NCBI RefSeq assembly: GCF_035084215.1 | Contig: NW_027139359.1 | Location: 124,001-188,000 of the forward strand | Source of the DNA: Heptranchias perlo | Lineage: Eukaryota | Direction of reading: 5' to 3' | Length of the DNA: 64,000 nucleotides | Shown here: in pieces, positions 12,935-62,312 of the stretch | Layout of the letters: every line of letters begins with the position of its first letter | Position numbering within the stretch: position 1 is the first letter of the stretch | Translations under genes and position numbers: made by a program | Notes under the pieces: generated by a model | Told to the model about the DNA's origin: nothing | The model's input: the letters and a program-made list of their open reading frames with translations, nothing else | The model's database searches: none

Positions 12935-13004
12935 ATGGGATGGCCAGTAACTGTGCAGATCGAAGCAATTTGCTACCCGATTCTTGCGTTGATTGGTGTT
13001 CCTG
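12935..13004 (+). CDS. GPR139/GPR142-related class A GPCR gene 1, coding exon 1 (N-terminus and start of TM1)
   Basis: MGWPVTVQIEAICYPILALIGVP-G, 70 nt, donor G|gtaagc (phase 1) joins in frame to 15903 to give the TM1 motif GVPAN; paralogous exon at 38392-38461. Confidence 0.88.
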
Positions 13005-13589
13005 GTAAGCCATTGTAATCGGTTATTTCCCCTTACGAATACTTATGCATTATTGCTGTTTTTGCCTAACAACAATATATATTCCTTTTCTGATGTGTTT
13101 GATGCTGTCGGTAATTACTGTTATCATTTGAATGAAATACATGCTTCCAGTTTTCAGCATTTTCTTAAAATAAAGAGCTTATAGAAAATAAACTTTCCTG
13201 TGAAAGTTTTAAAATGAGCGATTTTAGCGATTTTTCTTCTCCTTTATTAATGGTTCTTCAGATATTGTTGGTTTTATAGTTTCTGCGCTCCTGCCCTACG
13301 CTGGACAAAGAGGACAATTCTGCACCAATAGCCCATGACTGTTGTGCCCAATTTCTTTCACACCACATTTGAGGTAAAGTGGAGAGTGGATTGTCTGCCA
13401 GTTAACGAACACATCCAATTTTCATTCCAATTGAACGCAATGGGCTGAAAATCGGATGTTCTGTAATAAGTGGTTGAACTGCTGGGTCACTTTACAGATC
13501 AAAGTGACAACCTACACCAGGGGGAATTTTAACCTAACTTTCCTGGCCAGAAACCTTTGTAATCGGTTCGGGCGGCCGTATTGCTTCTT

Positions 13590-14046
13590 GTAGGTTAATT
13601 GTAAACTTTGGGTGATGGTATAAAATGAGCGCTATCACATTAGCCGTCCAATATAAACCCTGCCTGATTTTCTGTTCCATTGATGGAATTGGAAGGACAA
13701 ATCGGACGAGAGGTATAATGGAGAGTGAATTTGATGTCACCCATTCCACACCATCGCCAAAAGTTAAAATTCCCCCCAATGGATGGGAATGTTGGGCGAG
13801 ATGTATAATTGATGGTGAATTAGACATCGCCCGTTGCACAACATTCTCTAAAGTTAAAATTACCACTCATTGATGGGAAAATTGGGCGAAATGTGTAATG
13901 GGTGGTTAATTCAATAACACCCGTTTTACACCATCGTCCAAAGTTAAATTGAACCCCAATGGATAGGAACATTGGAGGAGATGTGTAATGGATGGTGAAT
14001 TCAATATCACCCACTTCACAGCATTTCCCAATGTTAAAAATCCCCC
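13590..14046. repeat. MITE whose right arm is tandemly amplified (4 x 90 bp)
   Basis: aagttaaaat-type motif at 13761, 13851, 13941 and 14031; left arm aactttgggtgatggt pairs with accatcgccaaaagtt. Confidence 0.8.
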
Positions 14047-14066
14047 TGCATGACTTTAGCTTTCAA

Positions 14067-14270
14067 AGGGTGAATTTTCAATTTTACAACTGTGGCAAAA
14101 TGTGCGGTATCTGATAGGCTGTGCAGCTGACAGCCCACTCGACCTTCATTTCCACTGAAGTTAAAGGAAAAAAAACGGTGGTCGAGTGAGGGGAGGCCGG
14201 AGCGTAAAACAGGAAGCAGATCCACTACAAGATGGATTTCTGCCCGGCGGTAAAACTGAAAATTCACCCT
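14067..14270. mobile_element. Palindromic MITE
   Basis: Perfect 14-bp TIR agggtgaattttca (14067-14080) / tgaaaattcaccct (14257-14270). Confidence 0.75.
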
Positions 14271-14329
14271 CAGTGAAATCAATGGAAGGTAAAATCTGTT
14301 GAAATTTGAAAACGGCAGCCTTCTGATCC

Positions 14330-14570
14330 AAGCAGTTGCTCAAAATTATCGCAAAGTCTCATCAACCACCGTGCGGGATGTTGTCAGGTCAGAACTAACA
14401 AAGCCTCACTGGGCATCCAGGAAGCACTGTGGGTCACCACAGCAGCAGAATTGTTTCCCGGCACAATCTGTACTCTCATGGTCCGGTACATCCTTTACTC
14501 CTCCATCATCATCAAGGCTGTAGACCGAGCAGGATTTAATTCTGTCTGTCAGGAGCACCATCAGCCTTTT
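14330..14570 (+). mobile_element. Degraded non-LTR retrotransposon ORF2 fragment
   Basis: cacaatctgtactctcatggtccggtacatcc is similar to 18500-18560. Confidence 0.5.
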
Positions 14571-14699
14571 GTGAGACACAATTTTGTTTCATTTACTGTC
14601 GCTATATGGGAGACGCTAGCAAGGCCACAATTATTGTGCAGTCCTGGTTTCCTGTAAAAGAATTATTGGGCCTTCTTCTTGAACAGCAACTTTTTTACA

Positions 14700-14950
14700 A
14701 CGGTGTTGTTTCGACACCACTTCAGAGGGCATTGACTCGTTTAGGTAGTGGGGGCCATACCGAGCGGGGGTGGTTGATCCCCATCCCCGAAGGGCAGTAG
14801 TAAGCCAAGGGATTTTTTGTGAAATCTGCCATTCTCATTCTTATTTGTTCTTCTTCTGGTGCTAGCACACAGATTACTTCATTAATTGAACGTGTCATGT
14901 TGGGATGTGAACTTCTGACCTCTGGCTGGTGCCAGAATAACTGTACATAC
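14700..14950 (-). mobile_element. Degraded SINE related to 48-196/2896-3135
   Basis: Reverse-strand similarity to the SINE body and B-box region (gggatgtgaac). Confidence 0.4.
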
Positions 14951-15157
14951 CAAATTAACCTTCTGCCCGAATGAAGAATGGGACATCATTCACCATTTTC
15001 CAGCAGTGTTTTATTATGTATTTGTAACTGAAACACATTCCAGATTGAAACATTTTGCTTTTATATTGTACCATAATACCAGGTATCATTGAGAAACGTA
15101 ACCAAGTTGTTTGCAGAGAGCGCAGCACTAAGATCGGAATATGGTAGTGGTTTTAAT

Positions 15158-15330
15158 GGGAGTAATTTTAGATTTGGGCGTTAGAGTAAAATGGGCAATA
15201 TCGAATGTGCTCGCATCATTTTTTTCTTCAATTGACTTCAATGGCAAGGAAAATCGGAAGTAGTGTATGAAGGACGGCTATTTTGATATCGACCATTTTT
15301 CTTTATCTCCGAAAGATAAAATGATCTCCA
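15158..15330. mobile_element. Palindromic MITE
   Basis: Degenerate TIRs ggagtaattttag / ataaaatgatctcc; central attgacttcaatgg. Confidence 0.6.
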
Positions 15331-15464
15331 ATGTGTTTGTCAATTCGAGCAGATGGGGTATTACATTGTGAATTCTATTATCGCATGATTAGGTAACAAT
15401 GCAATATCAATCGGATTATTTGTAATAACGGTATATGGACTGTACAGTTGGTTCACGACAACAT

Positions 15465-15618
15465 GGGGGTAAGTTCAACTTTAGTGACAGCATAAACCTG
15501 ACAAAATCAGATCAGTCGCCCACTGAACTCAATGGAAAGGATTCGGAAGTAGTGTGTGTACTGGCCAGCGAATTCGATGTCCGCCGGTTTACACTACCAC
15601 TAAAGTTGAAATTATCCA
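15465..15618. mobile_element. Palindromic MITE
   Basis: ttcaactttagtg / cactaaagttgaa inverted repeat; central cactgaactcaatgg. Confidence 0.65.
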
Positions 15619-15902
15619 TAATATGTGTTCCTCAATTGTTTGTGACGACCTTTGCAAGTAAGTGAGTGTAAATTGACGTAATCTGGGCAATTCCCTCCAT
15701 ACAAATTCAAAAAATAAATTAGAAAACTTCTGACCATAAAGTATTCGTCTTACCAGAATTTGAGCTTTCATAAGCTGTAGAAAACGCTTAGGTTCAGTGA
15801 CAGGAACAGAAAATAAAACATCACTGTGATTTTACACACAGTGCTAACCGTTGTCTTTCGTCAACACTAAATAATTTCGGCGTTGTGTTTCTTGTTTTGC
15901 AG

Positions 15903-16807
15903 CTAATTTAATGACGATTGTGATTCTCTCCAGGGGAAAGTGCGGTCTCTCCAAATGCATCACTCGCTATCTGGTTGCCATGGCAACGGCCGATCTACTG
16001 GTCATAATATTTGATGTGATACTGTATGCGATCAACGATATTTATTTCCCATATTCATTCCTGAACTACACTTGTGTCTGCAGAATCAATCTCCCTCTGA
16101 TTTATTTTGCCATTGATTGCTCAGTGTGGTTAACAGTGACTTTCACCTTGGATCGCTTTGTAGCCATTTGTTGCCGGAATTTGAGAACTAAATATTGTAC
16201 CGAAAAAACCGCCGCTCTGGTTATAGTGACAGTTTGTGGACTGAGCTTTTTAGAAAATCTTCCAATTTATTTTATATTTGAACCCAGTGAAATAATTGAC
16301 AACACCTCGTGGTTCTGTAATGTTCAGTCAAACTTTTATACCTCTCCCGCCTGGATAGCCTACCTCTGGTTAGACAGTATTTTAACCCCATTTGCTCCAT
16401 TCGTTTTGATTTTCCTCCTCAATGCTTTGACCATCAGGCATATTTTAGCAGCTAATATTATCCGTAGGGGACTGCAAGGTAACAATGGTGAGAATCAAAA
16501 TGATCCAGAGATGAGGAATCGAAGAAAATCGATCATCTTACTACTCGCCATTTCTGGCAATTTTGTACTGTTGTGGATGCTAACTCTGATGTATTACATG
16601 TGTGTACAAATTGCAGACTCGCAGTTTTTGCAGACAGATTACACCGACTCTTTCACTAGCATGGAAAAAGCAGGTTATCTGCTGCAGCGGTTCAGTTCCT
16701 GCAGTAACACAATTATTTATGCAGTGGCTCAAACTAAATTCAGAGAGGAATTAATGAATACGGTTAAAAGTCCATTTACTTTAATTATTAAGTTAATGAA
16801 ACACTGA
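15903..16807 (+). CDS. GPR139/GPR142-related class A GPCR gene 1, exon 2 (TM1 to C-terminus); intact, 324 aa with exon 1
   Basis: Acceptor ttgttttgcag| then (G)CT AAT TTA ATG; seven hydrophobic segments; ATADLL (D2.50), C3.25, DRF, TPFAPF, FVLLWM, NTIIY, helix 8 KFREEL; no stops. Confidence 0.93.
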
Positions 16808-17589
16808 TACGAACCAGGTTGTTCCATAGCTGACAAGAACATTATTGGGCCACAATTATACATTTCCAATTCATTGCAAATTGCCCAATATCGGGTAGAT
16901 TTTCAATCCAAATGAGCGTTCTATGCTGGGCGAGTGATCAGCATCATCATTTACCACCCACACAGTGAAAGTGGAAATCTACCCCTGGGATACTCATTGG
17001 AGACAGGAAATGTTGCTCTTTTCCGATGAGGTGGCGAAATTGTCTTTGCCAGTCCTCTGAGGAAGAGCTTTCCCATTAGTCCCACTCCCGTTCTGTTTCC
17101 TCATTGCCTTGTAATTTTTGTCCCTTTTAATTAGATATCCGCTTCTCTTTTGAATGGTTTTCGCCAGGAGCGCGAAATGGGCGATAGTGCTCAAAAATCT
17201 TTTCCATGACAAATAAAAACTCTCATCGTATGAAAAGGAATGCGGTTTCCCTATTGCCCGTTTCGGTCTCCTGCTGAAGACCCATTCCCACCCCCAATGT
17301 TTGTGTTCACAAAGTATTCATCTGCACAGTGGGGTAAATCTCTTTACGGTATAACTCATCCTATTCAATACGTCAAAAATTTTTGCACACCAGGAGCGGC
17401 AGAGAACTCGATTGGCACTCCATGGGTTGCCAACTGAGACTGGGATGGGACGAAGCCTTTTGACAGATTCTCACTCAGTTGAGTTCCCAATCCGGTGAAG
17501 CCCGGACTCCAAGGGTGCTGGTTAATGCGAAACATCCAATGTAAATGCAGCATTAGAAATGTTGTTACCCATCGACCCTGCTATCCTAC

Positions 17590-18500
17590 TCGCTGTTAAT
17601 TATAATTCCAAGCTTTGTGTGATGCACAAATTGTGAAATGATGCCCTTTATCCCCAATTGCAGACCATAATGTATATCAAAAAGAGCAGTGGTCCCAATA
17701 CCGACCCCTGGGGACACCAATGCACACTTCCCTCCATTCATTACTACTCTCTCCTTTCTGTCCCTCAGCGAATATCGAATCATTGCTGCCACTGCCCGTT
17801 TAATCCCATGGGCGTCAATTTTTCGAGCAACTCTATTATGTTGTACTTTTCAAAGGCTTTTTGAAATTCCACATCCACAACATGAACTGCACTAATTTCA
17901 TCAAAACTCTCCGTTATTTCATGGAAGAACTCAATCAAGTTAGTCAGACACGATTTGACTTCAACAAATCTGTGTTGGTTTTCATTTGTTAACCCACGTC
18001 CTTCCAAGTGACAATCAATTTTGTCCAAATTATTGTCTCTAGAAGTTCCCCAGCTCTGATGTTAGGCTGACTAGCCTGTAGCCACCTGCTTTATCCCTCA
18101 CCCCTTTTTTGAACAGGGTTGTAACATTTGCAAACCCTATAATCCTCTGGTACCGCTCCCGTGTCCTAGGAAGATTGAAAGATTGTGGCGAGACCTTCCA
18201 CTATCTCCATCCTTACTTCACCCAGTAACGCAGGATGCATCCTATCCGGACTGGGTGACTTTTCTACCTTGAGCGCTGCAAATCATTTAAGTACTTCATT
18301 TTTATCTATTTTTGTCGTATCCAATTTCTCTGCCCTCTCCTCCTTGGAAGCAACCTCCTCTTTAGTGAAGACAGATGCAAAATACACCTTTAGTACCGCA
18401 GCCATGCCCCTGCCTCCATAAGAAGATCTCCTTTTTGGAAACTAATCGGCCACACTCTTCCATTAAGAACCCATTAACTATTTATATATTGATTAATAAC
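17590..18500 (-). mobile_element. Degraded CR1 ORF2 fragment
   Basis: NQHRFVEVKSCLTNLIEFF, EFQKAF on the minus strand. Confidence 0.85.
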
Positions 18501-18730
18501 ATTGTATTCCATCACAATCTGTAACCTCATGGCCCGGCATATCCTTCACTCTACTATTAACACCAAGGCAGGGGATCAACCCTGGTTCAATCAGCAGTGT
18601 AGAAGAGCATGCCAGCAGCAGCAAAAGGCGTGCCTAAACAAGAGGAGACAGCCTGGTGAAGCTACAACACAGGATTACATGCATGCTAAAGAGTGAAAGC
18701 AGCATGCTATAGACAGAGCTAAGCGATCCC
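18500..18730 (+). mobile_element. Non-LTR retrotransposon ORF2 fragment
   Basis: TICNLMARHI...GDQPWFNQQCRRACQ, the PW motif after the APE domain. Confidence 0.65.
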
Positions 18731-19623
18731 CTTTTAACACATGTTACTGGGCACTACTTATGTATTATAAATATCTATCTCGATGTTACAAGGAGGCAGC
18801 GAAACTTCCTCGGACTGGGGCCTCATTGCAATAGTTCTCGGCCATTATAAGTGAGCCACATGTCGAATAGGCCTTTAAAATATGTCCATAAGTTGCATTG
18901 TAATATACGTGTTTCTAATAATTACTTTGAACTGGTATTTTACTGACACCACATCCAGTATATCCAGTCATCCATGTGCCAAACTGCTATAATGTGATCG
19001 ATGCCGGCTGTTTACAACTGATTGCGAGTCCGGTGAGAAATTCTTCCTGATTACATTGTGGCTTAACACAATGTGGCACAGAGTCGCCTTCACCAACACT
19101 CACCGGGACTCGTACTGGGCCAACACCATTACAGTGGCTTCCATCTGTTTCCTCACCCACCATGTGATGCGTCACATTGTCAGTCCTGTCATTACACAAA
19201 TAAACGGTGCAATGTTGCACCATTCAGGTTATTTGTAATAAAGGCGCCAGGTCTGTTTGAACGATGCACATTCTCATTCAAGTTCGTTGGAGTAAACCCG
19301 TAGGGTCTGTATGCATGTTGTTCCACAATATCTGTATTTCCTACCATATTGGGGGACATTTACAACAAAGCAGATATAGATTGAATAAATTCCAGCAAAG
19401 CACTCTGATCCATAATGTCACTTTTCCTATCTCTGGGTGGAATATATTAATGCTTCTAGATACAGATTTGTATTCATCTGTAAATATTCTCTTAATTAAC
19501 ATCGAGACGGATCGGCTTGAGCGAAAACAAGTACAATCCACTATAATATTATTCATGCTTAAACAATGATAATCCTTTTGTGGTGGGAATAAATAATATT
19601 TACTATTTTGCTCTTTCTTGCAG

Positions 19624-20538
19624 CTAATGTAATGACAATTGTGATTCTCTCCAGAGGAAAGTGCGGCCTCTCCAAATGCATAACTCGTTACCTGGTTGCC
19701 ATGGCAGCGGCGGATCTACTGTTCATCAGAGTTAATGTAATACTGTGTGAGATTAATAATAATTATTTTCCAAATTCATTTCTGAACTACACTCCTGTCT
19801 GCAGTTTGATTCTTACCCTGTCTTTTGCTGCCATTGATTGTTCCGTCTGGTTAACAGTCTCTTTCACCTTTGATCGATTTGTGGCCATTTGTTGCCGGAA
19901 GCTGAGACTCAAATATTGCACCGAAAAAACCGCGGCTGTCGTTATAGCAACGGTGTGTGGGCTGAGCTTCGTACAAAACATTCCGCTGTATTTTATATTT
20001 GAACCGCAGAAATTAATTATCAATGAAGATTGGCTCTGTATTGTAAAATTAAGCGTCTATACCTCACCCGTGTGGATAGCAATCTCCTGGTTTGACATTG
20101 TTTTAACCCCATTCGCTCCATTTGTTTGGATTTTGTTATTCAATGCTCTGACCATCAGGCAGATTCTGGTGACGAGTAGAGTTAGGAAGGAACTCAGGTG
20201 CAATAACAGTCGTGAGAATCACACAGATCCAGAGATGGAGACCCGAAGAAAATCCATCATTTTACTGCTCAGCATCTCTTGCAGCTTTATATTGTTATGG
20301 GTCATAACTTTAGCAGATTTTATCTGTGTACAAATTGTAGACTTTCAATTTATATTCACAGATTACAGTGACTCTCTCACCATCATGGAGGAAACTGGGG
20401 TATATGATTCAGAGTTTGAATTGTTGCACCAACACAATTATTTATGCAGTAGGGCAGAATAAATTCAGAGGCGAGCTGAAGGATGTGATTAAGTATCCCT
20501 TCGATCGAATTATTAAGTTTGTGAAATTATTGAAATAA
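19624..20538 (+). pseudogene. GPR139-related GPCR copy 2, main exon, with a +1 frameshift before TM7 (or a homopolymer assembly error)
   Basis: Acceptor tttcttgcag| CT AAT GTA ATG; open through TM6; extra G in GGGG 20397-20400; the shifted frame gives GYMIQSLNCCTNTIIYAVGQNKFRGELKDVIKYPF...TAA at 20538. Confidence 0.88.
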
Positions 20539-21469
20539 CTGATCTCAGTTCTGACTTAAATCAGCCCTTAGATTGTCCAATAGCAATCACGTATACTATC
20601 TAATTCCATTTGCTGTTGTTCGGCATTTTAACATGACGATCGATCTAACAATCTGCTTATCTATCTATCTATATCTAATTGATGAATTTTGTCCAGGGCA
20701 CTGAAAGGACTCTGGATTCTTTTTGATCAGTGCTACTGGTTCTGTAACATAATTCCAAAGAATCATACACCCCATCTGTTTTACATGACTTCCAGATTAA
20801 CAGCGCCTCTCATACTACAGTGCTGCACTGTATTGTCAGTCTGGACCGGGGATTGGCTCAGGGAAAGCAGGCTGCACAGTTAACCAAGTTCACTTATATG
20901 CTGACACCTTGTTTATCCTTTTGGATGAATGGCTTAATTCTTATGTGCTTATTAAGTTAAGTCTTGGTGCGATAACTTTCGATGAATTAAAAAGCAAGAT
21001 GGAGGCTAAATGCTTTTCAAAATTATTTTGAGCAATTTTGTTAAGTTCAATTTCTTCTCACCGTATGTTGTTTGCTGAATCTTTGCTCCCTGTTTGTTGA
21101 TAATGTTCCAATGTCTTCAAGTAATCAGCATTGTTCCTTTAACAGTAAGGTGGGAAGCAGTCACGGCTCCGAGCCACCGTTATAACTATAAGTACTGAGT
21201 TAGCCCTTGGGGAGAGGATGTGGCCTGGGTTGTAGGCTGACTATTGTTTCACAGCTGCTGCCATTGTCGATTGGGGGAGTTAACCGGTGAGGGGCACAAA
21301 ATGGGAGAGCGAGTTCGGAGACTAACATCAGAAAGTGGGTTGAGATTTGGCTCAGGTAAAAAGAAATCAACATTCCACAAAATTGAAGCAGACCAGCGCC
21401 TCCTACCTTGAAATTGAAATATTGGAACTGGGAGGACGGAAGGCTGAGTCGAGAGTGAGGATATTGGAA

Positions 21470-22190
21470 ATGCAATCCTGACAGCTTAAAGCGTTCACTC
21501 AGACATGATCACTATGTGTGAAACCAGGCATGTTAAAAGGTGTAATCGAATGTGTGAGGTGACACTTCCTATAAGATAGTTAAAGGAATAGTGAGGCCGA
21601 ATTGGGACAAAGAAGACAATCTTCTTGTGGAGGTAGAAGGCATGACTGAGGTACTGTATGAATACTTTGTATCTGTCTTCACAAAAGAGGATGACGGTAA
21701 TGTCGCAGTAATGGTGGAGGGAGTCGATATATTGGGATTGGATACAAATAGATAGAAAGGAAGCACTAAAAAAAACTTTCAACCCTCATAGTTAACAACT
21801 CACTCAGTCCAGATGAGCTGCATCCTCTGTTGCTGAGGGAAGCAAGGGTGGAAATAGCAGAAGCTCTGACCACAATCTTACAATTCTCCTTGAATACGGG
21901 AGCGGTACCAGAGGACAGGAGGATTGCAAATGTTTCACCCCAGTCCAAAAGAGGAGAGGGATAAACCTGGTAACTACAGGCCAATCAGTCTAACGTCAGT
22001 CGTGGGAAAACTACAAAAGACCATTGTCAAGGACAAAATTAATTCTTACTTGGAGAAGCATGAATTAATAAGGGACAACAAGCATGGACTTGTTAAAGAC
22101 CTATCGTGTCTGCTTAACCTGATTGAGCTCTTTGATGAAGTGTCAGAGTCTGTTGATGAAGGTAGTGCAGTCGGTATTGTATATAAGGGG
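21470..22190 (+). mobile_element. CR1 ORF2 internal fragment
   Basis: PGNYRPISLTSVVGKL, HGLVKDLSCLLNLIELFDEV. Confidence 0.85.
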
Positions 22191-22639
22191 GTTAAATTCG
22201 ATAACCCCTGAATGTGGTCTCGGGGGTCACGGTGCGCAATTAACCCACACTCGGCCGTTCCGATGCAGGCAGCATGTGAGGTTCACTTCCCTGATTCCAG
22301 CGCGAGCAGCCAGGCCTCGCTGCGTTGTTCAGAGACTTCTCACCAGAAAGGGGATCCAGATATCGTGAGAGTGGCTCGCAGCTCTTAACGGCAGTCTGCA
22401 CCTCTTAAAGGCAGCCTGCACATCTTATTCGCAAAAAAATGAGATACAGGTCCGCACGGAGACTGAATGGAGATCAGACATTGCACACATAAAATACAGG
22501 TGCAGGTTCCATTCCTATGTTTATGAACTGTTGAGCGATGTTAAAACATTGAATGAAGATTGCGCACTGCTAAATCCCACATCCCCCAATCTGCACTCCA
22601 GACCTCACCAATATGCCGATCTGAGTTGGTACCAGGCCT

Positions 22640-22870
22640 GCTAGAAAGCGCGCACCAAGGTTCTCTGATGATGCACTAGAGGCCTTGGCGCAAGAGGTGG
22701 ACAGAAAGAGGGGCATCATATATCTACAGGTGGGGGTTGGGGGAAACAGGACATTCAGACATATATCCAAGAGGCAGTGGGAGGCATTCAATGCCAGGAA
22801 CATAGCACCATGAACATGGATGCAGTGAAGGAAGAGGTTCAATGCTTTGACACGAGTGGTCAAGAATGAG
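22640..22870 (+). mobile_element. PIF/Harbinger relic, Myb/SANT DNA-binding ORF remnant
   Basis: Translation RKRAPRFSDDALEALAQEVDRKRGII...KRQWEA...TWMQ*RKRFNALTRVVK with stops. Confidence 0.7.
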
Positions 22871-25807: not shown

Positions 25808-26712
25808 CTATTTAATTAATTTAATGATTAGATCCAAAGGATACTTAATTTCATGCTTTAACTCCGTTCTGAATTTTGTCTGGGCCACTGCATAAATAAA
25901 TGTATTTGTACAGGGACTGAGAAGCTGCAGCATATACCCGGTCTGTTCCATGATGATGAGAGGGTGACTGTAGTCATTGTAGAAATGCTGAGCATCTGTA
26001 ACTTTTACACAAATGAAATATACAGTGGCTATCATCCATAGCAGTAGAAAACTGGCCGATATGGCAACCAGTAAAATAATGGATTTTCTTCTGTTCTTTA
26101 CCTCTGGGTCATTTTGATTCTCACCACTGTTGCTACCTCGAAGTGTCTTGCGGATTTTACTGACCACTAAAATGTGTCTGATGGTCAGAGCATTGAACAG
26201 AAAAATCAGGAAGAATGGAGCGAATGGTGTTAAAATGCTGTCCATCCAAGAATATGCTACCCACGCACGTACGGAATAGAAACTTGACTTTAAAGAGCAG
26301 TACCACGATACATCGTTAACTATTTTCCCAGGTTCAAAAACAAAATAGATCGGGGTGTTCTCCAAAACGCTCAGCACACACACTGCTGCTATGACGACAA
26401 TCGCAGTTTTTTCCGTGCAATATCTGAGTCTCAGCTTCTGGCAACAAATGGCCACAAATCGATCAAAGGTGAAAGAGACCGTTAACCAGACGGAACAATC
26501 AATAGCAGCAAAACCCAGGATGTGTTTCAGGCTACAAATAAGAGTGTAGTTCGGGAATGAATTTGGGAAATACATGTCATTAATCTCATACAGTATTACA
26601 TTAAATATCAGGACCAACAGATCTGCTACTGCCATGGCCACCAGGTAACGGGTGATGCATTTGGAGAGACCACACGTTCCACGGGAGAGAATCACAATCG
26701 TGAATAAGTTGG
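25808..26712 (-). CDS. GPR139-related GPCR gene 3, exon 2; intact, 324 aa with exon 1 at 38392-38461
   Basis: Acceptor tttttcatgcag| CC AAC TTA TTC ACG; 905 nt like gene 1 exon 2; AVADLL, DRF, TPFAPF, FLLLWM, NTFIY, KFRTEL; no stops. Confidence 0.93.
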
Positions 26713-38391: not shown

Positions 38392-38461
38392 CAGGAACAC
38401 CAACAACTGCAAGAATAGGATAGTAAATTTCTTCTATCTGAGCAATTATTGGCCGCCCCAT
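38392..38461 (-). CDS. GPCR gene 3, coding exon 1
   Basis: Reverse complement encodes MGRPIIAQIEEIYYPILAVVGVP-G, 70 nt, donor G|gtaagt, phase 1; paralogue of 12935-13004; implies an 11.7-kb intron. Confidence 0.88.
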
Positions 38462-38532: not shown

Positions 38533-38568
38533 TTTATACTTGTGAAATGTCCCAAGTGAGGCAATTAG
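38533..38568 (-). promoter_or_regulatory. Proximal promoter of GPCR gene 3: homeodomain site, Olf1/EBF-like site, TATA box
   Basis: Minus strand: TAATTG (38567-38562), 2 nt, TCACTTGGGA (38559-38550), TATAAA (38538-38533, 77 nt before ATG). Confidence 0.7.
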
Positions 38569-39426
38569 GTTAGACCACCTTTTACATTATTCACAGACAT
38601 ATGAACAAACAGACTCGCGGCTGTTTCTATTTCTACTTTGATCAGGGAATGAAACATCGTATCGACATTTCCCCATGGCATTAATTTCGAAACTAAATAC
38701 AAGAATAAGAGTTTGATTCTGTTGAGAATAACATGTTTTGAAACCAATAATTTTGTAGCCATGAGGCAGATCACTCGAGGACGGGACCTTTCATAGAGTT
38801 TCTCAAGTCACCAAATTACACCTTTGAAGAATCAAGGGCACTAACTTACATGAGATTAACACGATCTAGATTTTAGATACATATAGAATATATGTTGCTT
38901 TTTGTTTATTTTAAATGAACCATCCTGCTCAGCTTACGTATCAGGAATGTCTCAAGATGCATGAGATCAAAGTACCTCCATAGATACATTCAGGGAGCAA
39001 TACTAGTGTCTTGGGCAGTGCTTGAGGTAAGGCTTTTTGCCCACATGCCGACTCCCTGGCAGCCTATTTATTTTACTCAGGCCAGCTCACAGAACAAATT
39101 GTGCATGGCAGTAAGAAACCATTGAACTGGGGTGAAGAAATTGTATGTAATCAAAAAGGATGCTGCAACTTAAAGGAAAGTAGATGCATCTACGAAGACA
39201 TAAATTGGAAAATCCTTGTTAAAGGCTACATGGGGAAAAATGGTGACTACCAACACAATGTAAATATCGACTATGCGATAGATTGAAAAATGAAGGAGCG
39301 CGACAGAAGCTTGCTGGCTAGTGAGATGAAAGAATTGCTGCACTTAGATGGGTGAGAAGAGGTCTCCCTATTCCCAGGACAACAGTAAAATTTCCAGGGA
39401 GCAGTTCGTGGTCAGGTTGACAAAGT

Positions 39427-51522: not shown

Positions 51523-52390
51523 TTAGTATTTAATTAATTTTACAATTAGAGACAGGAGTACTGAATCATACTCGTCAGTTCCTCTCTGAATTTTAATCAG
51601 AGCCATTGTACAGATCATCGTGATTGTGCAGGATCTGAAAAGCTGATGAATATATCCGGTTTGTTCCATGATGGTAAAAGGGTCAATGTAATTTTTGTGG
51701 AAAATGGGAGTATCTATAATGTGTATATATATGTAATGTATAAACATTACCATCTACAACAGTATGAAAGTACCGGATATGGCCAGCGGTAGCGTTATGA
51801 ATTTCTCAGCCTCTGCGTCCTTATGATTGTCGCCATTGTTGATACCCCGCAGTCCCCTTGTGATTCTGCTGGTCAGGAGTATGTGCCTGATGGTCACAAC
51901 GTTGAACAGCAAAATTAAAACAAATGGAGCAAATGAGGTTAAAATACTTCCTAACCACAAAAAAGCGACCCACCCCTGTGTGGTGTCGAAGCTTGAAGTT
52001 ATGTAGTAGGGCCACGGCACCTTGACAATTAATTCCTGAGGTGCTTATATAAAATATTCCAGAATAATTTCTGCAAAACTCAGTCCACACGCGATTCCTA
52101 TAACCAAAGCCGCAGTATTTACATTACAACATTTTGTTGTCAATTTCTGGCAACAAATGGCCACAAAACGATTAAATGTGAAAGAATAGTTAACCAGACT
52201 GCAAGAGCAAGAGGAAGAATGAGACTGCAGACAGGAGTGTAGTTCGGGAATGAATTGGGAAAATAGGCATCGTTAATCTCATACTGGATTACATTAAACA
52301 TCCGATACCGTGGCCAACAGGTAACGGGTGATGCAGTTAGAGAGGCTGTCCTTTCCACAACAAAGAATGCAATTGTCAAAAAAAAAATAG
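51523..52390 (-). pseudogene. GPR139-related GPCR copy 4, decayed main exon
   Basis: Acceptor ttttttgcag|; fragments CITRYL, YFPNSFPNYTPVCSLIL, SILTSFAPFVLILLFN, DPFTIMEQTGY in different frames; several frameshifts and deletions. Confidence 0.9.
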
Positions 52391-52495
52391 CTGCAAAAAA
52401 GGGGGAAAGTCAAATTAGTAATTACATACATAAAGAAAAAAATGATAAGTTTGAGAATATTTTCCATTTTCTTTGCTCTGTTGATCAAAACATTT

Positions 52496-52670
52496 GGGGC
52501 AATTTTAACCTCACCCACCCGTCGGGAATACGGCGAGCTGGGGTGTGACGTTGTTTTTACACCCCCCCTCCCCCAACCCCGATTGGATAATAATATTGGA
52601 CGGATGTAAATCCGGTGCTTCATTCGATCCCTGTGGTTTCTCGCCCGGCGAGTTCGGTTAAAAATACCCT
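52496..52670. mobile_element. Palindromic MITE
   Basis: ggggcaattttaacc / ggttaaaaataccc TIRs. Confidence 0.7.
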
Positions 52671-53957
52671 CATTGCTCTATCTGATAGTCAGGCAAATCC
52701 TGAGAAGGTAAACCTCCTCATCAATACACAGCAGCAAAATATGAATTACCTCAGGAGAGAGTGAAAGAGATACTGGTCCAGAATATTAAGATTTGTACCA
52801 TTTACATCAACGTTCGGCTGCAGTCCATAGAAGGAACATTGGGGCAGATTCATGACATTTTCACCTGGGTTTATGCATTATCTTCGCAGATTGCGGAGAG
52901 GAAGTTTGGAGGGACAGAATTGCGCCTGATTTTCTTTCTGTTCAAATGATTGCCCACCTTGATTACCGAGATCCCCAACCAAAACCTCTTCGGACTCATT
53001 AATATTGCAAGTGTACAAACAGCAGAAATATGCATATTGCAGCAGAGGACAGTGGTAAGAAATAGGAACAGGAGTGGGCTATACGGTCCCACGAGCCTGC
53101 TCTGCCATTCATAAGATCATGGCTGATCTTCTACCTCAATACCATTACCACCCGATCCCCATAGCCCTTGATTCCCTCAGTGTCCAAGAATCTGCCGATC
53201 TCAGTCGTCAATATATTCAACGACTGAGCATCCACAGACCTCTGGAGTAGAGATTTCCAAAGATTCCCAACAATTTGAGTCAAGAAAATTTTCCTCATCT
53301 CGGTCCTAATGGAAAATTTGGGAGGAGATTTGAAAGAAACATTCTCATGAGGGGTTTAGATAAAGTAAATATAAAGAAACTGTTCCCATTGGCGGAAGGG
53401 TCGAGAAACAGGACACAGATTTAAGGTGCATGGCAAAAGAACGAAATGCGACTTGAGGAAGAATTCTTTTATGCAGCGAGTAGTTGTGATCCGGAATGTT
53501 CTGCCTGAAAGGATGGTGGAAGTAGATTCATTCATGGCTTTCAAAAAGGAATTGGATTAATACTTGGAGGGAAAAAGTGCAGGGCTACGAGAAATGAGTG
53601 GGGGAATGTAACTAACTGGATTGCTGTTATAAAGAGCCAGCACAGGTCCGATGGGCCGATTGGCCTCATTCTGTGCTGTAACCAATCTATGATTTTATGA
53701 TTCTAAATGGACGACCACTTATCTTGAGACTATGACCCCTAGTTCTAGACTCTCCAGCCAAGGCAAACAGCCTCTCAGCATTTTCCTGTCAAGCCCTCGA
53801 GGAATTATATACGTTTCAATGAGATCACGTCACATTCTGGTAAACTCCAGAGAATATAAGCCAATTCTACTCAATCTCTCCTCACCTGACAACCCTCTCA
53901 TCCCAGGAATCGTACTAGTGAACCTACGTTGCACCCATTCTAAGGCAAGTATTTCCC

Positions 53958-54920
53958 TCCTTAAAGTGGCGCTTACATTTTGATTTTGTCACCGCTCGTA
54001 ATCCAGTGGAACCAGCTACTCGACTTGAGGACCCATCGGAGATAATTACTTGGACTGGGGCAGACCAAACAGGTGTGGACACATTCAGCTGGGATCTGCC
54101 CATAATGCTGTTTCCAACCAATCCTATGCTTGCATCTTATGTGTCACAGTGTTCACCTTCTAATTCCATCAGTATTCGAACTTTATTATTTTCTCTTCAG
54201 CTGAGGAGTGGTACTTTGGAAAGTTTACAACCACTGGATTTAAAATGTTTGGATTTTAATAACCATCAATGTTACAACAGTAACAAATGGAAGGGCAAGG
54301 AATGAAACCGCCATAGATTTTCCAACTACATCAGTTCTTGCACTGCTAATCAGGGGTTACTAAATATATCACAATGTGCGACACCAGAACATTGCTGTGC
54401 AGAAGTGAGCAGTAATGGCTTATGGAAAGAAATGTGAAGAGAGGGATTTGTGGTGACCACATTTTCTCCAATGAATTACATTGAAAGGGCTCGGAGGGAA
54501 AACATCCAACTTCCCCATTTTCTTATATATGTTTGAAAACTGTCGATCCAAAAATTGCTTAAATTTGAAACTGACTGATCCGAAGATTCTGTCTTCAGTG
54601 GAAGTACTTTAAACACACAAAGTTGTGTTTATGGCTCTTGATCTATGATGGTTGTGAAGTATGAGCTTACAATTAAATCGTTGAAATGCACTTTTTATTT
54701 TGCAGTGTTTTTTAATGTAGATAGTCTGAAGCCCACGATTAGGGAGTACTGCAAATTCACATACTTCTGTGCTCATTGAAGTTCCTATGTGTGTAACTTT
54801 TAACACATGCTGCACATTCACAGATAGTTTGCTGCTCTTGAGAATTCTACATTTTGTACTAAAGGTACATTTTATTCATTGTATAATAAAACATCAATAA
54901 ATCCTGTTAATCTAAAAAAA
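53958..54920 (+). pseudogene. RGP1: 5'-truncated retrocopy of the RGP1 (RAB6A GEF complex partner 1) mRNA 3' end: last ~73 codons + 3' UTR + poly(A) remnant
   Basis: SLKWRLHFDFVTARNPVEP...TWTGADQTGVDTFSWDLPIMLFPTNPMLASY...SNSISI matches the vertebrate RGP1 C-terminus as I recall it; CGA at the expected stop (54177-54179); AATAAA at 54885 and 54896; A7 at 54914-54920. Confidence 0.88.
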
Positions 54921-54982
54921 GGGCACAGTCACGATGGGACGAATGGCCTCCTTCTGTGCCGTAAATTTCTACGATTCTATGA
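54921..54982 (+). mobile_element. CR1 extreme 3' tail fused to the RGP1 retrocopy
   Basis: gggcacagtcacgatgggacgaatggcctccttctgtgccgtaaatttctacgattctatga; same tail type as 53640-53703. Confidence 0.85.
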
Positions 54983-57900
54983 TACTGTTCCTTCGGTAAG
55001 GAGACCAAAACTGTACACTGTACTCCAGGTGTGATCTCACCCGAGCTCCATATAATTGCAGCAAGCCCTCGTGACTCTTCTATTCCAACCTCTTTCCAAA
55101 TAAGGCGAACATACCATTTGCCTTCCTAATTGCTTGCTGTACCTACATGTTAAATTTCAGTGATTCATGTGCAAGGAGCCCCAAATCCCTCTGGCTTCCA
55201 ACATTTCTACGTCTCTCACCATTTAAAAAATATTTTGCTTTTCTATTCTTCCTGCCAAAGTGGATAATTTCACATTTCCCTACATTATACTCCACCTGCC
55301 ACCTTCGGGCCCACTGACTTAACCTGTCTATTTAACTTTGCAGCCTCTTGGCATCCTTCTGGCAGCTTACCTTTCCACCTAGCTTTGCCGTGAAAACGTT
55401 TTTATAGAATAGTTATGATCTGAATTCGATGCTTGAAAGGGTGGTGGAAGCAGATTCAACTGTGGCTTTCAAAATGGAAATGGACAAATACTTGAAGAGA
55501 AAAAATGCGGAAAGTGTGGGTAAATGGAACTAGCACGGGCTCGATGGCTAGCAAATCCTCTGGACCTGATGGCCTACATCCTAGGGTTTTAAAACAGGTG
55601 GATGCAGAGATATTGGATGCAAATTTGGGTACACTCTGTTCAATTTACACTCTGTCCCCTCATCTAAGTCATTGATATATATTAGAAACAGCTGAGGCCC
55701 AAATACTGATCCTTGCGGCACCCCACTAGTTACAACCTGCCAACCCAAAAATGACCCGTTTATTCCTACTCTCTGTTTTCTCTCCATGAACCAATCCTCA
55801 ATCCACGCTAATACATTATCCCCTAATACATGAGCCCTAATCTTGTGTAACAACTTCTTGTGTGGCATCTTATCGAATGCCTTTTGAAAATCTATACGTA
55901 CCTTATCCATTGGTTTCCCCTTGAGCTGCATCCTGAAAAAATTCTAATAGATTTGTCAAACACAATTTCCCTCTCATAAAACCGTGCTAACGTTGTCCAA
56001 TCATATTACGATTTTCTTAGTGTTCAGTTGCTACGTCCTTAATAATTATTAAATCCCTAATAAGAATCTAGCATTTTCCCTACTACTGATGGCAGGCGAA
56101 CTGGCCGAGAGTTCCCTGTTTTCTCTTTCTCTCCTTTCTTGAATAGCAGGGTTACATTTGCTACCTTCCAATCCATGGGGAATTCTGGAAGATCAAAACC
56201 AATGCATCAACTATCTCTGCAGCCACCTCTTTAAAACCCTAGGATGAATGTCATCAGGTCCAGGGGATTTGGCGGTTTCTAATATCATTAATTTCTCCAG
56301 TACTTTTTCTTTACTAATCTTAATTACTTCAAGTTCCTCACTCTCATTAGACGTTTAGTTCCCCACTATTTCCGGTATGTTTTTTCTGTCTTCTACCGTG
56401 AAGAGCGGTTCAAAATGTTTATTTAACATCTCTGCCATTTTCTTATTCCCCATTATAACTTCTCCTGTCTCTTCCTCGAAGGGATCAACGTTTACTTTCG
56501 CTAGACTCTTTCCTGTTTTCATACTTGTAGAATCTCTTACAATCTGTTTTATTATGTCTTGCTAGTTGACTCTCATATTCAATTTTCTCCCTCTTCATCA
56601 ATTTCTCGGTCATCCTTTGCTTATTCCTAAAACCCTCCCAACCCTGAGGCATCCTACTCTTTTTGGCAGCATTAAAAGCCTTTTTTAAAATCTTATACTA
56701 TCCTTAACTTCTTTGGTTGCCCATGGTTGAATGACTTTTCACTTGGAATTTTTAGAATTATGAATTATTTATTTAAATGTTTCCCATTGCTTATCTATCA
56801 TCACATCTTTTAATCTAATTTTCCATCTACCTTAGCCAACTCGCACCTTATACTTTCGTAATTTTGTTTAAATGTGAGACCCTAGTTTCAGACTTAACCG
56901 GGTCACTCACAAACTCAATGTGATATTCTATCATATTATGATCACTCTTCCCCAAAGGATCCTTAACTATAAAATTACGAATTAACCTTCTCTCATGACA
57001 CAATACTAGGTTCTCGGATGGGGCACACATGTCGACATGGCACATGGGCGCCGGGGGACGTTGATATCAGGTGGAGGAAATTGTGTGAATCGGCAGTGGC
57101 ACAAATGCAGCTCTAGGTCAATTTTCCTCTGCTTCACACAAGAAACAGATCACAAAGCAGTCATTAAAATGATGAATATACAGCCCCCTATCCCTGCATT
57201 AGAAATAACCTAATAATAATGCAGTACAACGTTTGAGAAGGTAATGTTAGGATTCACAATGTTATACTCCAGCTCGTGGTTTCCAAAAACAAATGAAAAC
57301 TTTGGCAATGAATGCATGTGCTTGTTCTTTCTAAGAAAACATGTAGATGATAAGAACACCAATTAGCCTGCTCTTGGCCGACACCAAGAATGTAAATTGA
57401 GACAAACTGCATCGTCATTCCCTGAATTTCTGTATATTAGCTTTAGTCGAAGCAAAATCATGGCCAACCTGCGCGCAATTTTCGGATATGTGCTTTCGCC
57501 TTGTGCCAGAATTGGATGTTTTGCATATTTAACATGACTTAGGATTACCATTGGTGATTTGCATCCAGCCACAACATAATAGTGAAACATTTCACTTTGT
57601 AATGTTCTGCAATTACAAACAGGTTGAATCATATATATTACAGCATAGTGGGAGATGAGGGAGAGACAGCTGCTCCAGGCATCGACAAAGGAGACTGTGG
57701 CAATGAAGCAGATATAGAACGTTTAGGCTAGATCGTCCAGTGATGAAGAATCTTTCTACTTATTCGACAAAGCAACATTAATACTAAAGAGAAATAGAAA
57801 TGTGCCCAAAGCATGATTTCCTGCCTTTTTGGCAGCGCTGTTAGTTATTTAAGTTCTTTTTGATTTGGCTTAAGGGAAGCCCTATCCGTGAGGTAAGTGT

Positions 57901-58949
57901 TAAAGGAAACACTATTTTTTTCTTACCCATTTGTCTTTAAAGATGCCATTACTAGTGTTTGACGTTGTTTTCGACGTGGTGAAATAAATATATTTATCCA
58001 ATTTCTGGATGGTTCGGTTTATCTCCCCACCCATCGGTGACTGTTTCTTTTCAGTATTCCATCAATGTCGATAAGTTATTGGAAATCTCACTGTATGTGA
58101 GGCGCTATGAAACTTCAGTAAACAAAAACAGATGACACAAGATGGCAAGCAAAAATGATCTAATCCAATAGCAACTCTTGTGGGAGTTTAGGAAAACGCA
58201 AAGCAAGTAAACAGAGAGTCCTGTGCAAGTTACGGTTAAATTGCTGATGAGTATTGGTTCAAATGTTCCTCAAACACATTGGCCTACAATTCCTGAACAT
58301 AAGAGGAGGATACAAGTTAGACAGAAGAGGGGTGGTGGAAATTTGGGGGTAATGCATTTTGCCGAGGGTCACCATTTCTAAATTTTACGTTATTAAATTT
58401 AAACTGCAGGAAACAGGGGCAATAAGCGCCAATCCATTCCTCATGCCGTCCCTGACACTGATTGTATGTAATTCTCCTTGATCAGCCGATTCACTTTATA
58501 TAGGCGAGCACATGGCACATACTGGGTCTGGCACTGGGAACGCCCAGAATGAGGTTAGTGGAAGAAATTACTTGAAATTGCATTGTGGGCAATGAAAAGG
58601 AAGTGACCAGTTAAAGATGTGTGGAAGATAAATTGGGAACGAAAAAGCTTTTATTCTGGTTGTGCATGAAAACAAGTCTTTGCGGGATCAAGAGAAGCAA
58701 AAAGGAAGAATGCTCCACTGAGTCACAAAGGAAAGGGTTCCCCTGCCATGGAATCCCCCCTTCCCTTCCGCAAGACCCTTCTGAAAGCTCTTCCGTGCTA
58801 CTTGCATGGAAACTGGCTGGTCGCCAAAATCCATCTGATCTTTGCCTGCCGTCATATGCTCTGCATTCCCTTCCTATCCAGAATGAGCGGCAAATGTCCC
58901 AGCAGCATTTGAATGTCGCCTAAGAGTTAAAATACCCGTGCTTGAAAGT

Positions 58950-60355
58950 TAGAACATAAGAACATAAGAGATAGGAGCATGAGTAGGCCATTTGGTCCTT
59001 CGAGCCTGCTCCGCCCTTCAATGAGATCATGGCTGATCTGATTCTGGTCTTAACGCACTTTCCCGCCTCTTCCCCATATCTCTTGACTCCCTTGCTGATC
59101 AAAAATCTGTCTAACTCAGCCTTGAATATATTCAATGACTCAGCCTCCACCGCTCTCTGGGGCAAAGACTTCCAAAGGTTCACAACCCCCTGAAAGAAGA
59201 AATTTCTCCTCATCTCCGTCTTAAATGGACGACTCCTTATTCTGAGTCTGTGCCCCCTAGTTCTCGATTCCTCTATGAGGGGAAACATCCTCTCAGTATT
59301 TAACATGTCAAGCCCCCTCAGAATCTTATATGTTTCAATAAGATCTCCTCTCATTCTTCTAAACTCCAGTCAGCCCAACCTGCTCAATCTTTCTTCATAA
59401 GAAAACCCTTCCACACCCGGAATCAACCGAGTGAACTTTCTCTGAACCGCCTCCAATGCTAGTATGTCCTTCCTTTAATAAGGGGACCAAAACTGTACGC
59501 AGTACTCTAGGTGTGGTCTCACCAGCACCCTGTACAGTTGTAGCAAGACTTCCCTGCTTTTATAATCCATTCCCCTTGAAATAAAGGCCAATATTCCATT
59601 TGCCTTCCCAATTACCTGCTGCACCTGTTTACCACCTTTTTGTGTTTCATATACGAGGACACCCAAATCTCTCTGTACTGGAGCATTTTGTAGTCTTTCT
59701 CCATTTATATAATATTTTGCTTTTTTATTCTTCCTACCAAAGTGGATGACTTCACATTTTCCCACATTATACTCCATCTGCCAAATGTTTGCCCACTCAC
59801 TTAACCTATCGATATCCCTTTGCAGTCACTTTGACTCCTATCTTTGTGTCATCAGCAAATGTGGCCACAGTCCACTCGCTTCCTTCATCCAAGTTATTGA
59901 TATAGATTGTAAATAGTTGAGCTCCCAGCACTGATCCCTGCGGCACCCCACTAGTTATAGATTGCCATCCTGAAAATGACCCCTTTATCCCGACTCTCTG
60001 TTTTCTGTTCGTTAGCCAACCTTCTATCCATGCTGATGTGTTACCCCAACACCATGAGCTCTTACCTTGTGTTGTAACCTTTTAGGTGGCTCCTTATAGA
60101 ATACCTTTTGGAAATCCAAATACACTACATCTACCTGTTCCCCTTTATCCACCCTGCTCGTTACTTCTTCAAATAACTCTGATAAATTTGTCAAACACGA
60201 TTTCCCTTTCATAAAAGCATGTTGACTCTCCATGATTATATTATGAGTCTCCAAATGTCCTCCTACGACTTCTTTAATAATCGATTCTAGCATTTTCTCA
60301 TTGACAGATGTTAGGCTAACTGGTCTATAGTTACTTGCTTTTTGTCTCCCCCCTG
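58950..60355 (-). mobile_element. CR1 LINE, 5'-truncated, relatively young
   Basis: SNYRPVSLTS, YLDFQK, RPHLEYCVQFWSP, MRGDLIETY; (aacataag)n tail at ~58952. Confidence 0.93.
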
Positions 60356-60779
60356 TTAAGTCAGTGAGTGCATTTGATACTTGCCTTGGCCCCAGTCTGC
60401 CTGCAACCACGGTCTGGGTTAAAATCCCTGTGTCTTCACTTGAAATAATATTAGTGACAATCGGTAATATTCATACAGACTGTATATTTCGTAATGATAA
60501 CTTTAATTATTAATTTCTGCGGTGGATCCTCAATCTACCGCTATAACTTTGGCAGAAGATCAGCGGTAAACCCAATCAAATGTCGGGAATGATCATTGAA
60601 TTTTTTAAAAGCCTGATGAAGTAAAAAAATACCTTGAGCATCCAATTTTAATGGTGCATTAGCATAGCTTTAGGATTCAAATGATTCTAACGGGCTTAGG
60701 GAACACAATAGTGGTCAGAGCAAACAATTACGTGTGCGCAAAACTCATAGGAAGGGGAGAATTAAAGTGGCTGGAAAAA

Positions 60780-61160
60780 CCGGGTGACAACAATTCTAAA
60801 TCCCTTCAGAGAGTCTCAACATACATCTCAAGAGACTGTCCAAAGCTTGGTCACCAGGATGCAGTCCAAGGAGGGTCCTAAACGAGGTGGAGCTGCGAAG
60901 AAGTTTACAAAAGGGAGTTCCAGAGAGTAGGAAGGGGGCAGTCCGAGGCACAACTGCTGTTATTGAGGTGAAGAGAGGGCGTTGCACCATGAGTGTAATC
61001 AGAGAAACAGGAGGGTATAAATTCATCTTGGGCGGTAAAGAATGGGTACTGTTACAGGTGTGTGATCTCTCTCCTGAGATTTTTCATTCTGCACGCCATC
61101 CAGACAATGGTAAAGGTTCAGATAGTAAAGATAGAAATCTATACTAAGGGCCTGTTTGAA
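60780..61160 (-). mobile_element. Degraded L2-like 3' fragment
   Basis: agggagttccagag and flanking purine-rich motifs resemble 25300-25400 and 43200-43300. Confidence 0.4.
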
Positions 61161-61407
61161 ACGAAAATCAGGCAACAGTAAAATGGGCAGCCCATTCGCA
61201 ACAATACATTTTTCACGCAAGGAAAATTGACCTCAGCGAGATGTAAATTTTCTCTTTGGCCTCGTGTGTGGTAAAGCGACGGGGCTGATAGCGCTCCCAA
61301 TGTCGAATCCTCATTTATTTCGATTGAAAATCTACCCCTAGTGCTTTGGGAAAGTAAAATAGTGGCCCAATGTGTCTTTAGTCAACTATGGAACAATCCT
61401 GTTCCCA

Positions 61408-62312
61408 TCAATGTTTCATTAAGTTAATAATTAAAGTGAAGGGACTTTTAACCGTATTCACTAACTCCTCTCTGAACTTGGTCTGAACCACTGCATAGAT
61501 AATGGTGTTGGTACACGAACTGAACCGCTGCAGCAGGTATCCTGTTTGTTACATGATAGTGAAAGGGTCGGTGTAATCTGTCTGCAAAAACTGCGAGTCT
61601 GCAATTTGTACACACATGTAATACATCAGAGTTAGCATCCACAACAGTACAAAATTGCCAGATATGGCGAGTAGAAAGATGATGGATTTTCTTCGATTCC
61701 TCATCTCTGGATCATTTTGATTCTCACCATTGTTGCCTTGTAATCCCTTTCGGATAATATTAGCTGCTAAAATATGCCTGATAGTCAAAGCATTGAGGAG
61801 CAAAATCAAAACGAATGGAGCAAATGGGGTTAAAATACTGTCTAACCAGAGATAGGCTATCCCGGCGGGAGAGGTATAAAAGCTTGACTGAGCTTTACAG
61901 AACCACCAGGTGCTGTCAATTACTTCCAGGGGTTCATACGTAAACCACATCGGAACATTTTCTAAAAAGCTCAGTCCACAAACTGTCACTATAACCGTAG
62001 CGGCGGTTTTATCTGTACAATATTTAGTTCTCAAATTCCGGCAACAAATGGCTACAAAACGATCAAAGGCAAAAGTCACGGTTAACCAGACGGAGCAATC
62101 AATGGCAAAATAAATCAGAGGGAGATTGATTCTGCAGACAGAAGTGTAGTTCAGGAATGAATATGGGAAATAAATATCTTTGATCCCATACAAGATTACA
62201 TCAAATATCATGACAAGCAGATCCGCTATTGCCATGGCAACCAGATAGCGAGTGATGCATTTGGAGAGACCGCACGTTCCCCGGGAAAGAATCACAATCG
62301 TCATTAAATTAG
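61408..62312 (-). pseudogene. GPR139-related GPCR copy 5 main exon (closest paralogue of gene 1) with one in-frame TAA before TM7; exon 1 probably beyond the window
   Basis: Acceptor ttttgtag| CT AAT TTA ATG; 905 nt like gene 1; TAA at 61551-61549 where paralogues encode Glu; the frame continues QTGYLLQRFSSCTNTIIYAV...LMKH-TGA. Confidence 0.9.

Follow-up and report, generated by a model that had tools for sequence, protein, structure and literature searches.

A very large and apparently undescribed family of class A receptors with a diversified ligand-binding face in the genome of the shark Heptranchias perlo

The receptor GPR139 lends its name to many automatically annotated genes of cartilaginous fishes. 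GPR139 senses tryptophan and phenylalanine (PMC5430874), and its ligand is anchored by the residues E3.32, R6.51, N7.39 (7x38) and D2.61 (PMC12775434). Chemoreception in sharks has been described in terms of other receptors. The known repertoire is dominated by V2Rs (PMC10116579, PMC6368271, PMC11979771), the chemoreceptor set of the catshark is small, comprising 65 genes (PMC6368271), and the olfactory neurons of this species are uniformly positive for Go and TRPC2 (PMC10116579). Cartilaginous fishes have also been described as poor in G-protein-coupled receptors (GPCRs) as a whole (PMC8455134). In this study we analysed a stretch of 64,000 nucleotides from Heptranchias perlo (contig NW_027139359.1, positions 124,001 to 188,000; contig C1192, 124001–188000, of the 3.25-Gb assembly), further referred to as the window. 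Six-frame translation and tblastn identified in it five paralogous main exons of class A GPCRs. The original prediction, made from the letters of the window, regarded them as members of a chemoreceptor-like family related to GPR139. Its expansion, constant intracellular face and diversified pockets are borne out below, and the argument about ligands that was built on GPR139 is not.

The size of the family was estimated by several searches of the assembly. A protein search produced 4,605 first-look candidates, and all 130 candidates that were scored are at least 57% identical. A 29-nt pattern derived from TM3 (the third transmembrane helix, TM) has 2,492 exact matches, a 32-nt pattern derived from TM7 has 2,421, and a pattern covering exon 1 and the donor site has 1,503, with zero matches for each of the controls. 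Hence the family contains at least 2,400 copies in the assembly, and the lineage-specific birth-and-death expansion that had been proposed from five exons is far larger than the window shows. In the listed part of contig C2 the TM3 and TM7 patterns mark 86 and 79 places, respectively, 71 of which are common, so that the recall counted by hand is about 0.9; among genes that were not picked by pattern, the TM3 pattern recovers 61 of 93. From the pattern counts and these recall figures, the number of main exons is estimated at about 2,800–3,800. Main exons are open in 34 of the 40 copies picked by motif on C2 and C3 (11 of these were seen only to about codon 288) and in 21 of the 31 copies from four contiguous stretches, remnants being counted. 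Of 150 open exons, 149 retain the AG acceptor. This set of 150 included three rows from single-copy relatives, which were taken out, and the remaining 147 were merged at 99.5% DNA identity, yielding 126 genes that served as the sample for residue and type counts.

Many copies are nearly identical. The sampled genes, which are a biased 126 of thousands, represent 112 types at 98% protein identity; the number falls to 71 at 90% and to 28 at 80%, and therefore the distinct receptor types probably number in the hundreds. Some observations weigh against the headline count. The region of the window recurs on contigs C42, C1080 and C627 at 95–100% protein identity, 948 of the 1,043 copies of the largest subfamily are located on the smaller contigs (those numbered 284 and above), and one gene is represented by 29 copies at ≥98% identity among 40 scored. 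The first two, together with an exact self-repeat on C1317, would be expected if the count were mostly an assembly artefact caused by uncollapsed haplotypes, the real family having a few hundred loci at most. We consider this highly improbable, given that a diploid genome yields no more than two copies of a gene against the 29 seen. Moreover, a gene on C1275 is matched by a single copy at 99% and another at 97%, all others being at 93% or below, the sample is spread over the many types listed above, and many members are present in many other elasmobranch annotations.

The clusters have several structural features of their own. On C1317, six pairs of matches are separated by exactly 3,999,424 bases (for instance, 2427582 and 6427006, or 1247082 and 5246506), which reflects either a 4-Mb duplication of very recent origin or a duplication introduced by the assembly. 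Spacing of the matches on C2 between 2.9 and 5.7 Mb outlines a unit of about 190 kb that carries four family genes, two on the minus and two on the plus strand, and is repeated many times. Inside the receptor cluster on C38 (7.169–7.196 Mb) lies a 3.1-kb tandem array that comprises about seven copies (96–98% identity), and two elements of retroviral appearance, whose long frames resemble gag, pol and env, are situated between receptor genes on C1275 (2.49–2.54 Mb).

The proteins are class A (rhodopsin-like) GPCRs. In all four proteins scanned, the Pfam family 7tm_1 (PF00001) scored above the cut-off and was the sole match at E ≤ 0.001; in these four, neither profiles specific for odorant receptors (ORs), TAARs, V1Rs, T2Rs and V2Rs nor the 7TM_GPCR_Srw profile gave a match at this threshold. 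The predicted structure of a full-length relative (P0004; predicted local distance difference test score, pLDDT, 88) has seven helices, helix 8 and a hairpin in the second extracellular loop (ECL2). Every listed fold match of this model is a class A receptor; the top one is GPR139 (7vug, 22% identity), with peptide receptors close behind. Generic residue numbers were assigned from motifs. D2.50, R3.50 and Y7.53 are kept in all 126 members, P5.50 in 123, C3.25 in 124 and C45.50 in 123, while P6.50 and P7.50, both usual in class A but not obligatory, occur in three and two members, respectively.

The contrast between a constant inner and a variable outer half, first noticed in the window, extends to the whole family. 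For its analysis, 31 pocket positions were fixed before the tests from general knowledge of class A receptors. The mean entropy equals 2.21 bits at these positions, 2.00 in the extracellular loops, 1.53 at the other 58 positions of the outer TM halves, 1.04 in the intracellular loops and 0.71 in the inner TM halves (pocket vs other outer TM, p=2e-4). The sample contains 103 distinct signatures over 19 pocket sites. In 54 disjoint pairs of genes the ratio of nonsynonymous to synonymous substitution rates (omega) is 0.27–0.32 in the inner TM halves and 0.9–1.1 in the pocket and loops.

Selection at individual sites was assessed by comparing models M8 and M8a in our own implementation, with fixed relative branch lengths and 4–5 beta classes. 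These models omit gene conversion and multi-nucleotide changes, both of which may inflate omega, and the synonymous rate (dS) is somewhat elevated in the variable parts. In the largest subfamily (33 genes) twice the log-likelihood difference (2dL) equals 358, and omega is 4.7 at 12% of sites. The selected sites of this subfamily include 14 of the 31 pocket positions vs 4 of the 58 other outer TM positions and none of the 40 intracellular loop positions (p=4e-5), as well as 11 of the 45 loop positions; the excess of amino acid changes at pocket sites that had been anticipated is thus present. For the C38/C3 subfamily (28 genes) 2dL is 212, with omega of 4.6 at 10.5% of sites. When all 126 genes are taken together, 2dL is 164 and omega is 1.8, and 10 of the 31 pocket positions vs 2 of the 58 other outer TM positions are selected. 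Four simulations under the null model gave 2dL of 2 or less, and a positive simulation was recovered. Thus, the inner core is under purifying selection, and pocket and extracellular-loop sites are under positive selection. Tracts of gene conversion are unlikely to be the sole cause of this signal, since the selected sites are restricted to positions on the pocket-facing side of the helices.

These results also bear on the possibility that the amplification is passive, that is, that unstable arrays of segmental duplications produce copies most of which are redundant for one endogenous ligand and drift without any repertoire function. The 190-kb unit with its four genes on C2, the gene with 29 near-identical copies and the class-average omega near 1 in the pocket would all fit such a scenario. 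It is nevertheless quite improbable: the core is under purifying selection and the acceptor site is almost always intact, the selected sites follow the pocket-facing side of the helices, which neither drift nor conversion tracts would produce, and subfamilies are common to sharks and rays, as seen in the 72-row tree described below.

The named proteins among the best 120 of 2,135 database matches all belong to sharks and rays, and a chimaera member was found as well (P0128), so the family extends over sharks, rays and chimaera. The assembly contains true GPR139 and true GPR142 as one locus each, on C25 and C26, respectively. Human GPR139 matches gene A of the window no better than the V1a receptor does (E 8e-8). 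In a careful LG+G4 tree of 33 rows a joint clade of GPR139, GPR142 and the family is rejected by the approximately unbiased (AU) test with p=6.8e-5, a value that long branches may affect. The topology of a quick mixture-model tree of 72 rows (row C10 was left out as too short) agrees with it. The sister group in both trees is a gene present at about one copy per species in amphibians and sturgeon (the P0231 group; support 100/99), and the family, the P0231 group and two other paralogs that are single-copy in jawed vertebrates, the TMEM183A-linked genes and the C5/Engraulis genes, form one clade (100/97). The motif DPEM..RR.SI.LL occurs in both the family and the P0231 group. These relatives differ from the family in their number: in bony vertebrates a species has about one 90% cluster of them, as compared to thousands of loci in the family. 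No mammal or bird is found among their listed matches, and no known ligand was found for the P0231, TMEM183A-linked or C5/Engraulis genes. In the assembly, two single-copy orphan receptors of the same clade are located on C30 (14.08 Mb) and C5 (114.75 Mb); they have relatives in bony fish, amphibians and reptiles, and all bear the label 'probable GPR139'. In Chiloscyllium punctatum, a family member (the P0166 cluster) is annotated together with a RING-domain protein, possibly owing to a fusion or a mis-join.

With GPR139 and GPR142 the family has in common the best-hit name, the top fold match, the absence of the TM7 proline and a phase-1 intron before N1.50. Family members have the acceptor at the position seen in GPR139, GPR142 and both the C5 and the C30 paralog, which reflects shared ancestry, not orthology. 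In contrast to the single-copy GPR139 and GPR142, the family forms a separate clade and has lost E3.32, D2.61 and P6.50. Of the GPR139 ligand anchors, E3.32 and D2.61 are absent from all 126 members; R6.51 is kept by 13 of them and N7.39 by five, and two of E3.32, R6.51 and N7.39 are never combined in one of the 126. Judging by the sequence comparisons, the family represents a separate lineage and not orthologs of GPR139 or GPR142. The name 'probable GPR139' is a best-hit label, and therefore sensing of tryptophan and phenylalanine cannot be transferred to the family. The reasoning from GPR139 pharmacology had to be abandoned on account of the separate lineage, the single GPR139 and GPR142 genes elsewhere in the genome and the lost anchors. 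An extension of GPR142-type amino-acid sensing, with the members sensing nutrients or metabolites internally, in gut and endocrine cells, is very improbable as well. The intron position, the top fold match and the elements of the family promoter that presumably are FOX-like and NKX2-like (CACTTGA) agree with it, but the anchors are lost, and thousands of positively selected copies would exceed the needs of a few nutrients.

The features of the window are listed in Table 1. All five main exons, distributed over both strands, were found where they had been predicted, two being intact, two having one lesion each and one being decayed. Genes A and C are complete two-exon genes, copies B and E lack exon 1, and D is the decayed copy. 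The N-terminus is very short, as had been noted, given that TM1 begins about five residues past the initial Met in the model of P0004. The predicted intracellular motifs and the TM3 variants RINLPLIYF, SLILTLSFA and SLKHILGFA are likewise present. An exon-1 profile run over the window detected first exons for A and C only, with GTAAG immediately following both; no such exon belonging to B or E was detected. The absence of exon 1 from B and E raised the idea that one first exon serves alternative main exons. It was rejected because first and main exons pair 1:1 in all 12 full-length genes on C42 and because E belongs to a partial duplicate, namely a 2.46-kb tandem one (about 61342–63801; 96.5%) of the next copy outside the window. 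Copy B is a pseudogene; an identical 289-aa frame is seen in all four assembly copies listed.

Table 1. Receptor loci A to E and their parts; coordinates are positions in the window.
Feature	Position	Strand	Description
Gene A promoter module, common to family	12785..12862	+	TGTTTGTTCA box, TGACTGT-like element, CTAAT, O/E-like site, TATA box
Gene A exon 1	12935..13004	+	Met, short N-terminus, first half of TM1; GTAAG donor, phase-1 intron
Gene A main exon	15903..16807	+	open; full protein 324 aa
Copy B main exon	19624..~20529	+	1-nt insertion near 20390; no exon 1 found
Gene C main exon	25808..26712	-	open
Gene C exon 1	38392..38461	-	GTAAG donor; 11.7-kb intron
Gene C promoter module, common to family	38534..38611	-	-
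Copy D main exon, decayed	51525..~52398	-	stops, frameshifts, deletions
Copy E main exon	~61408..62312	-	single TAA at 61551; no exon 1

The closest named database protein comes from Heptranchias perlo (99%). For gene A, the database protein is a 402-aa model (P0001) with an N-terminal extension of 78 residues, partly derived from a LINE-like (long interspersed nuclear element) fragment at 8710–9018; this extension is probably a mis-annotation. The intron of gene A contains a degenerate tandem repeat with a period of about 90 bases (13699–14047). The remainder of the window consists mostly of fragments that we take to be LINE-like reverse transcriptases.

Twenty-five promoters were recovered from four clusters, and all of them have one fixed layout: a TGTTTGTTCA-like box, TGACTGT, CTAAT, a TCACTTGAG/TCAGTGGAG-like element and a TATA box. 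One 19-nt form of the promoter has 269 matches vs 1 for the control, the listed places being mostly inside family clusters. The elements resemble sites that we assume to be those of FOX, homeodomain, O/E or NKX2 factors, CACTTGA being NKX2-like.

Transcript data comprised three runs of one sample, presumably RNA, with the tissue unrecorded, and were compared with a member of the largest subfamily on C2. All three runs yielded a contig that skips 2,150 bases at a depth of 36–73, corresponding to the exact intron (1118–3267) with a three-base shift, which fits a paralog ending in CCAG. The pattern of the spliced junction has no intronless matches in the assembly, so retrocopies were rejected as its origin; taken separately, its two halves agree with the ends of 16 of 19 first exons and with the starts of 98 of 126 main exons. 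Hence at least one family member is spliced, a conclusion that does not extend to the genes of the window. For gene A of the window no RNA data set was listed, which carries no weight in either direction. Since intron stretches are covered too, the runs contain DNA or unspliced RNA, and the depth cannot be used to rank expression. Many paralogous contigs are present in each of the three runs. The database proteins P0091 and P0116 read through the intron and thus are uninformative on splicing.

We estimate at roughly 45% the probability that the family is a repertoire of sensory receptors whose ligands are peptides or amino-acid derivatives. Each member would bind its own set of waterborne peptides or amino-acid derivatives by means of the fast-changing pocket. 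Peptide-like ligands are suggested by the ECL2 hairpin, the selection in the outer vestibule and the ancestry among peptide receptors. The invariant intracellular face suggests a common transducer, so that all members may signal through one G-protein pathway, and the shared promoter points to a single cell type in which the members would be expressed. Putative sites of expression are the nose, taste buds or solitary chemosensory cells, and Go, or Gq with phospholipase C (PLC) and TRPC2, would be a transduction fitting shark olfactory neurons. The V2R-dominated, Go- and TRPC2-positive background known from the catshark is compatible with the sensory reading and is no proof of it. Only tentatively do we suggest the wider statement, that cartilaginous fishes possess a further chemoreceptor family of vertebrates, which arose from an orphan peptide-receptor lineage with a single copy in amphibians and sturgeon, has in this shark as many genes as the largest OR repertoires of mammals and accounts for a large part of shark smell or taste.

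Compared with ORs, TAARs, V1R/ORA, T2Rs and shark V2Rs, the family has clustered birth-and-death arrays, a short N-terminus, a constant inner face, a variable pocket and a shared promoter in common with them; it differs from them in being an unrelated GPCR lineage (Pfam 7tm_1 only) with an intron inside TM1. Both by language-model features (0.96–0.98) and by database names, the nearest invertebrate look-alikes are the FMRFamide-receptor-like, sex-peptide-receptor and nematode srw group, although the Srw profile did not match and the invertebrate rows lie outside the vertebrate clade.

A number of points weigh against a sensory role. Omega above 4 combined with 30-fold amplification of near-identical copies is less typical of odorant receptors than of receptors with an immune or defence role. 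The selection signal of the C38/C3 subfamily resides mainly in the loops (14/45), the pocket having 4/31 selected sites vs 4/58 in the other outer TM positions (p=0.28). In the clade of the window genes (32 genes) 2dL is 15, with omega of 1.9 at 5.6% of sites, and the enrichment of its four selected sites in the pocket is not significant (p=0.12). The transcript runs, given the unrecorded tissue, tie the family to no chemosensory organ. In mouse, OR enhancers are marked by adjacent Lhx2 and Ebf sites (PMC5608512); the likeness of the family promoter to them is a lead only, because the O/E-like pattern was fitted after the sequences had been seen and the homeodomain-plus-O/E pair is adjacent in 3 of the 25 promoters. 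The catshark olfactory neurons are already accounted for as a V2R-dominated Go/TRPC2 population (PMC10116579). No GPCR is found among the 50 top genes of a brain-plus-olfactory library (PMC11979771), although this evidence is weak where a large family is concerned.

The rapid amplification and the strong positive selection acting on the extracellular face would fit an immune or barrier sentinel family analogous to MRGPRs or formyl-peptide receptors, with granulocytes, mast-like cells or nociceptive neurons detecting microbial, parasite or venom peptides. MRGPR/MAS and formyl-peptide receptors are organised in clusters specific to individual lineages, with positive selection acting on their ligand face, and the clustered arrays and short N-terminus of the family resemble those of MRGPRs. 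The spliced transcripts and numerous paralogous contigs in all three runs of the sample are consistent with such a function, and MAS1 and its relatives are reported missing in cartilaginous fishes, which would leave the niche vacant (PMC8455134). The family is, however, far larger than MRGPR/MAS, and no kinship with MRGPRs was seen among 15 sequence matches or the listed top 50 fold matches. A supplement of one single-nucleus study of shark spleen (PMC10529500) gave no match either, although with 4,750 characters it is weak evidence. On balance, we consider the sentinel function somewhat unlikely, though a serious rival, and retain the sensory repertoire as the preferred interpretation.

The literature searched, which included few subscription papers, yielded no description of the family. 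The accessible parts of PMC10620051, PMC12294341 and bioRxiv 10.64898/2026.08.31.747588 do not mention it. The 24 supplementary files of PMC8455134 contain no GPR139-type match except human GPR142 in an orthogroup list, and the eight supplementary files of PMC13188829 contain no such match. The genes themselves are already present in public annotations under automatic names. The family thus appears to be an undescribed, very large receptor repertoire of a known kind that comes from a new lineage.

Whatever the function, more than 2,400 loci with strong selection on the ligand face overturn the view of cartilaginous fishes as poor in GPCRs. The puzzle of shark olfaction, in which large olfactory organs are served by about 65 chemoreceptor genes (PMC6368271), becomes directly testable. 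If the function is immune, the family would constitute a new large repertoire for innate sensing in the oldest lineage with adaptive immunity.

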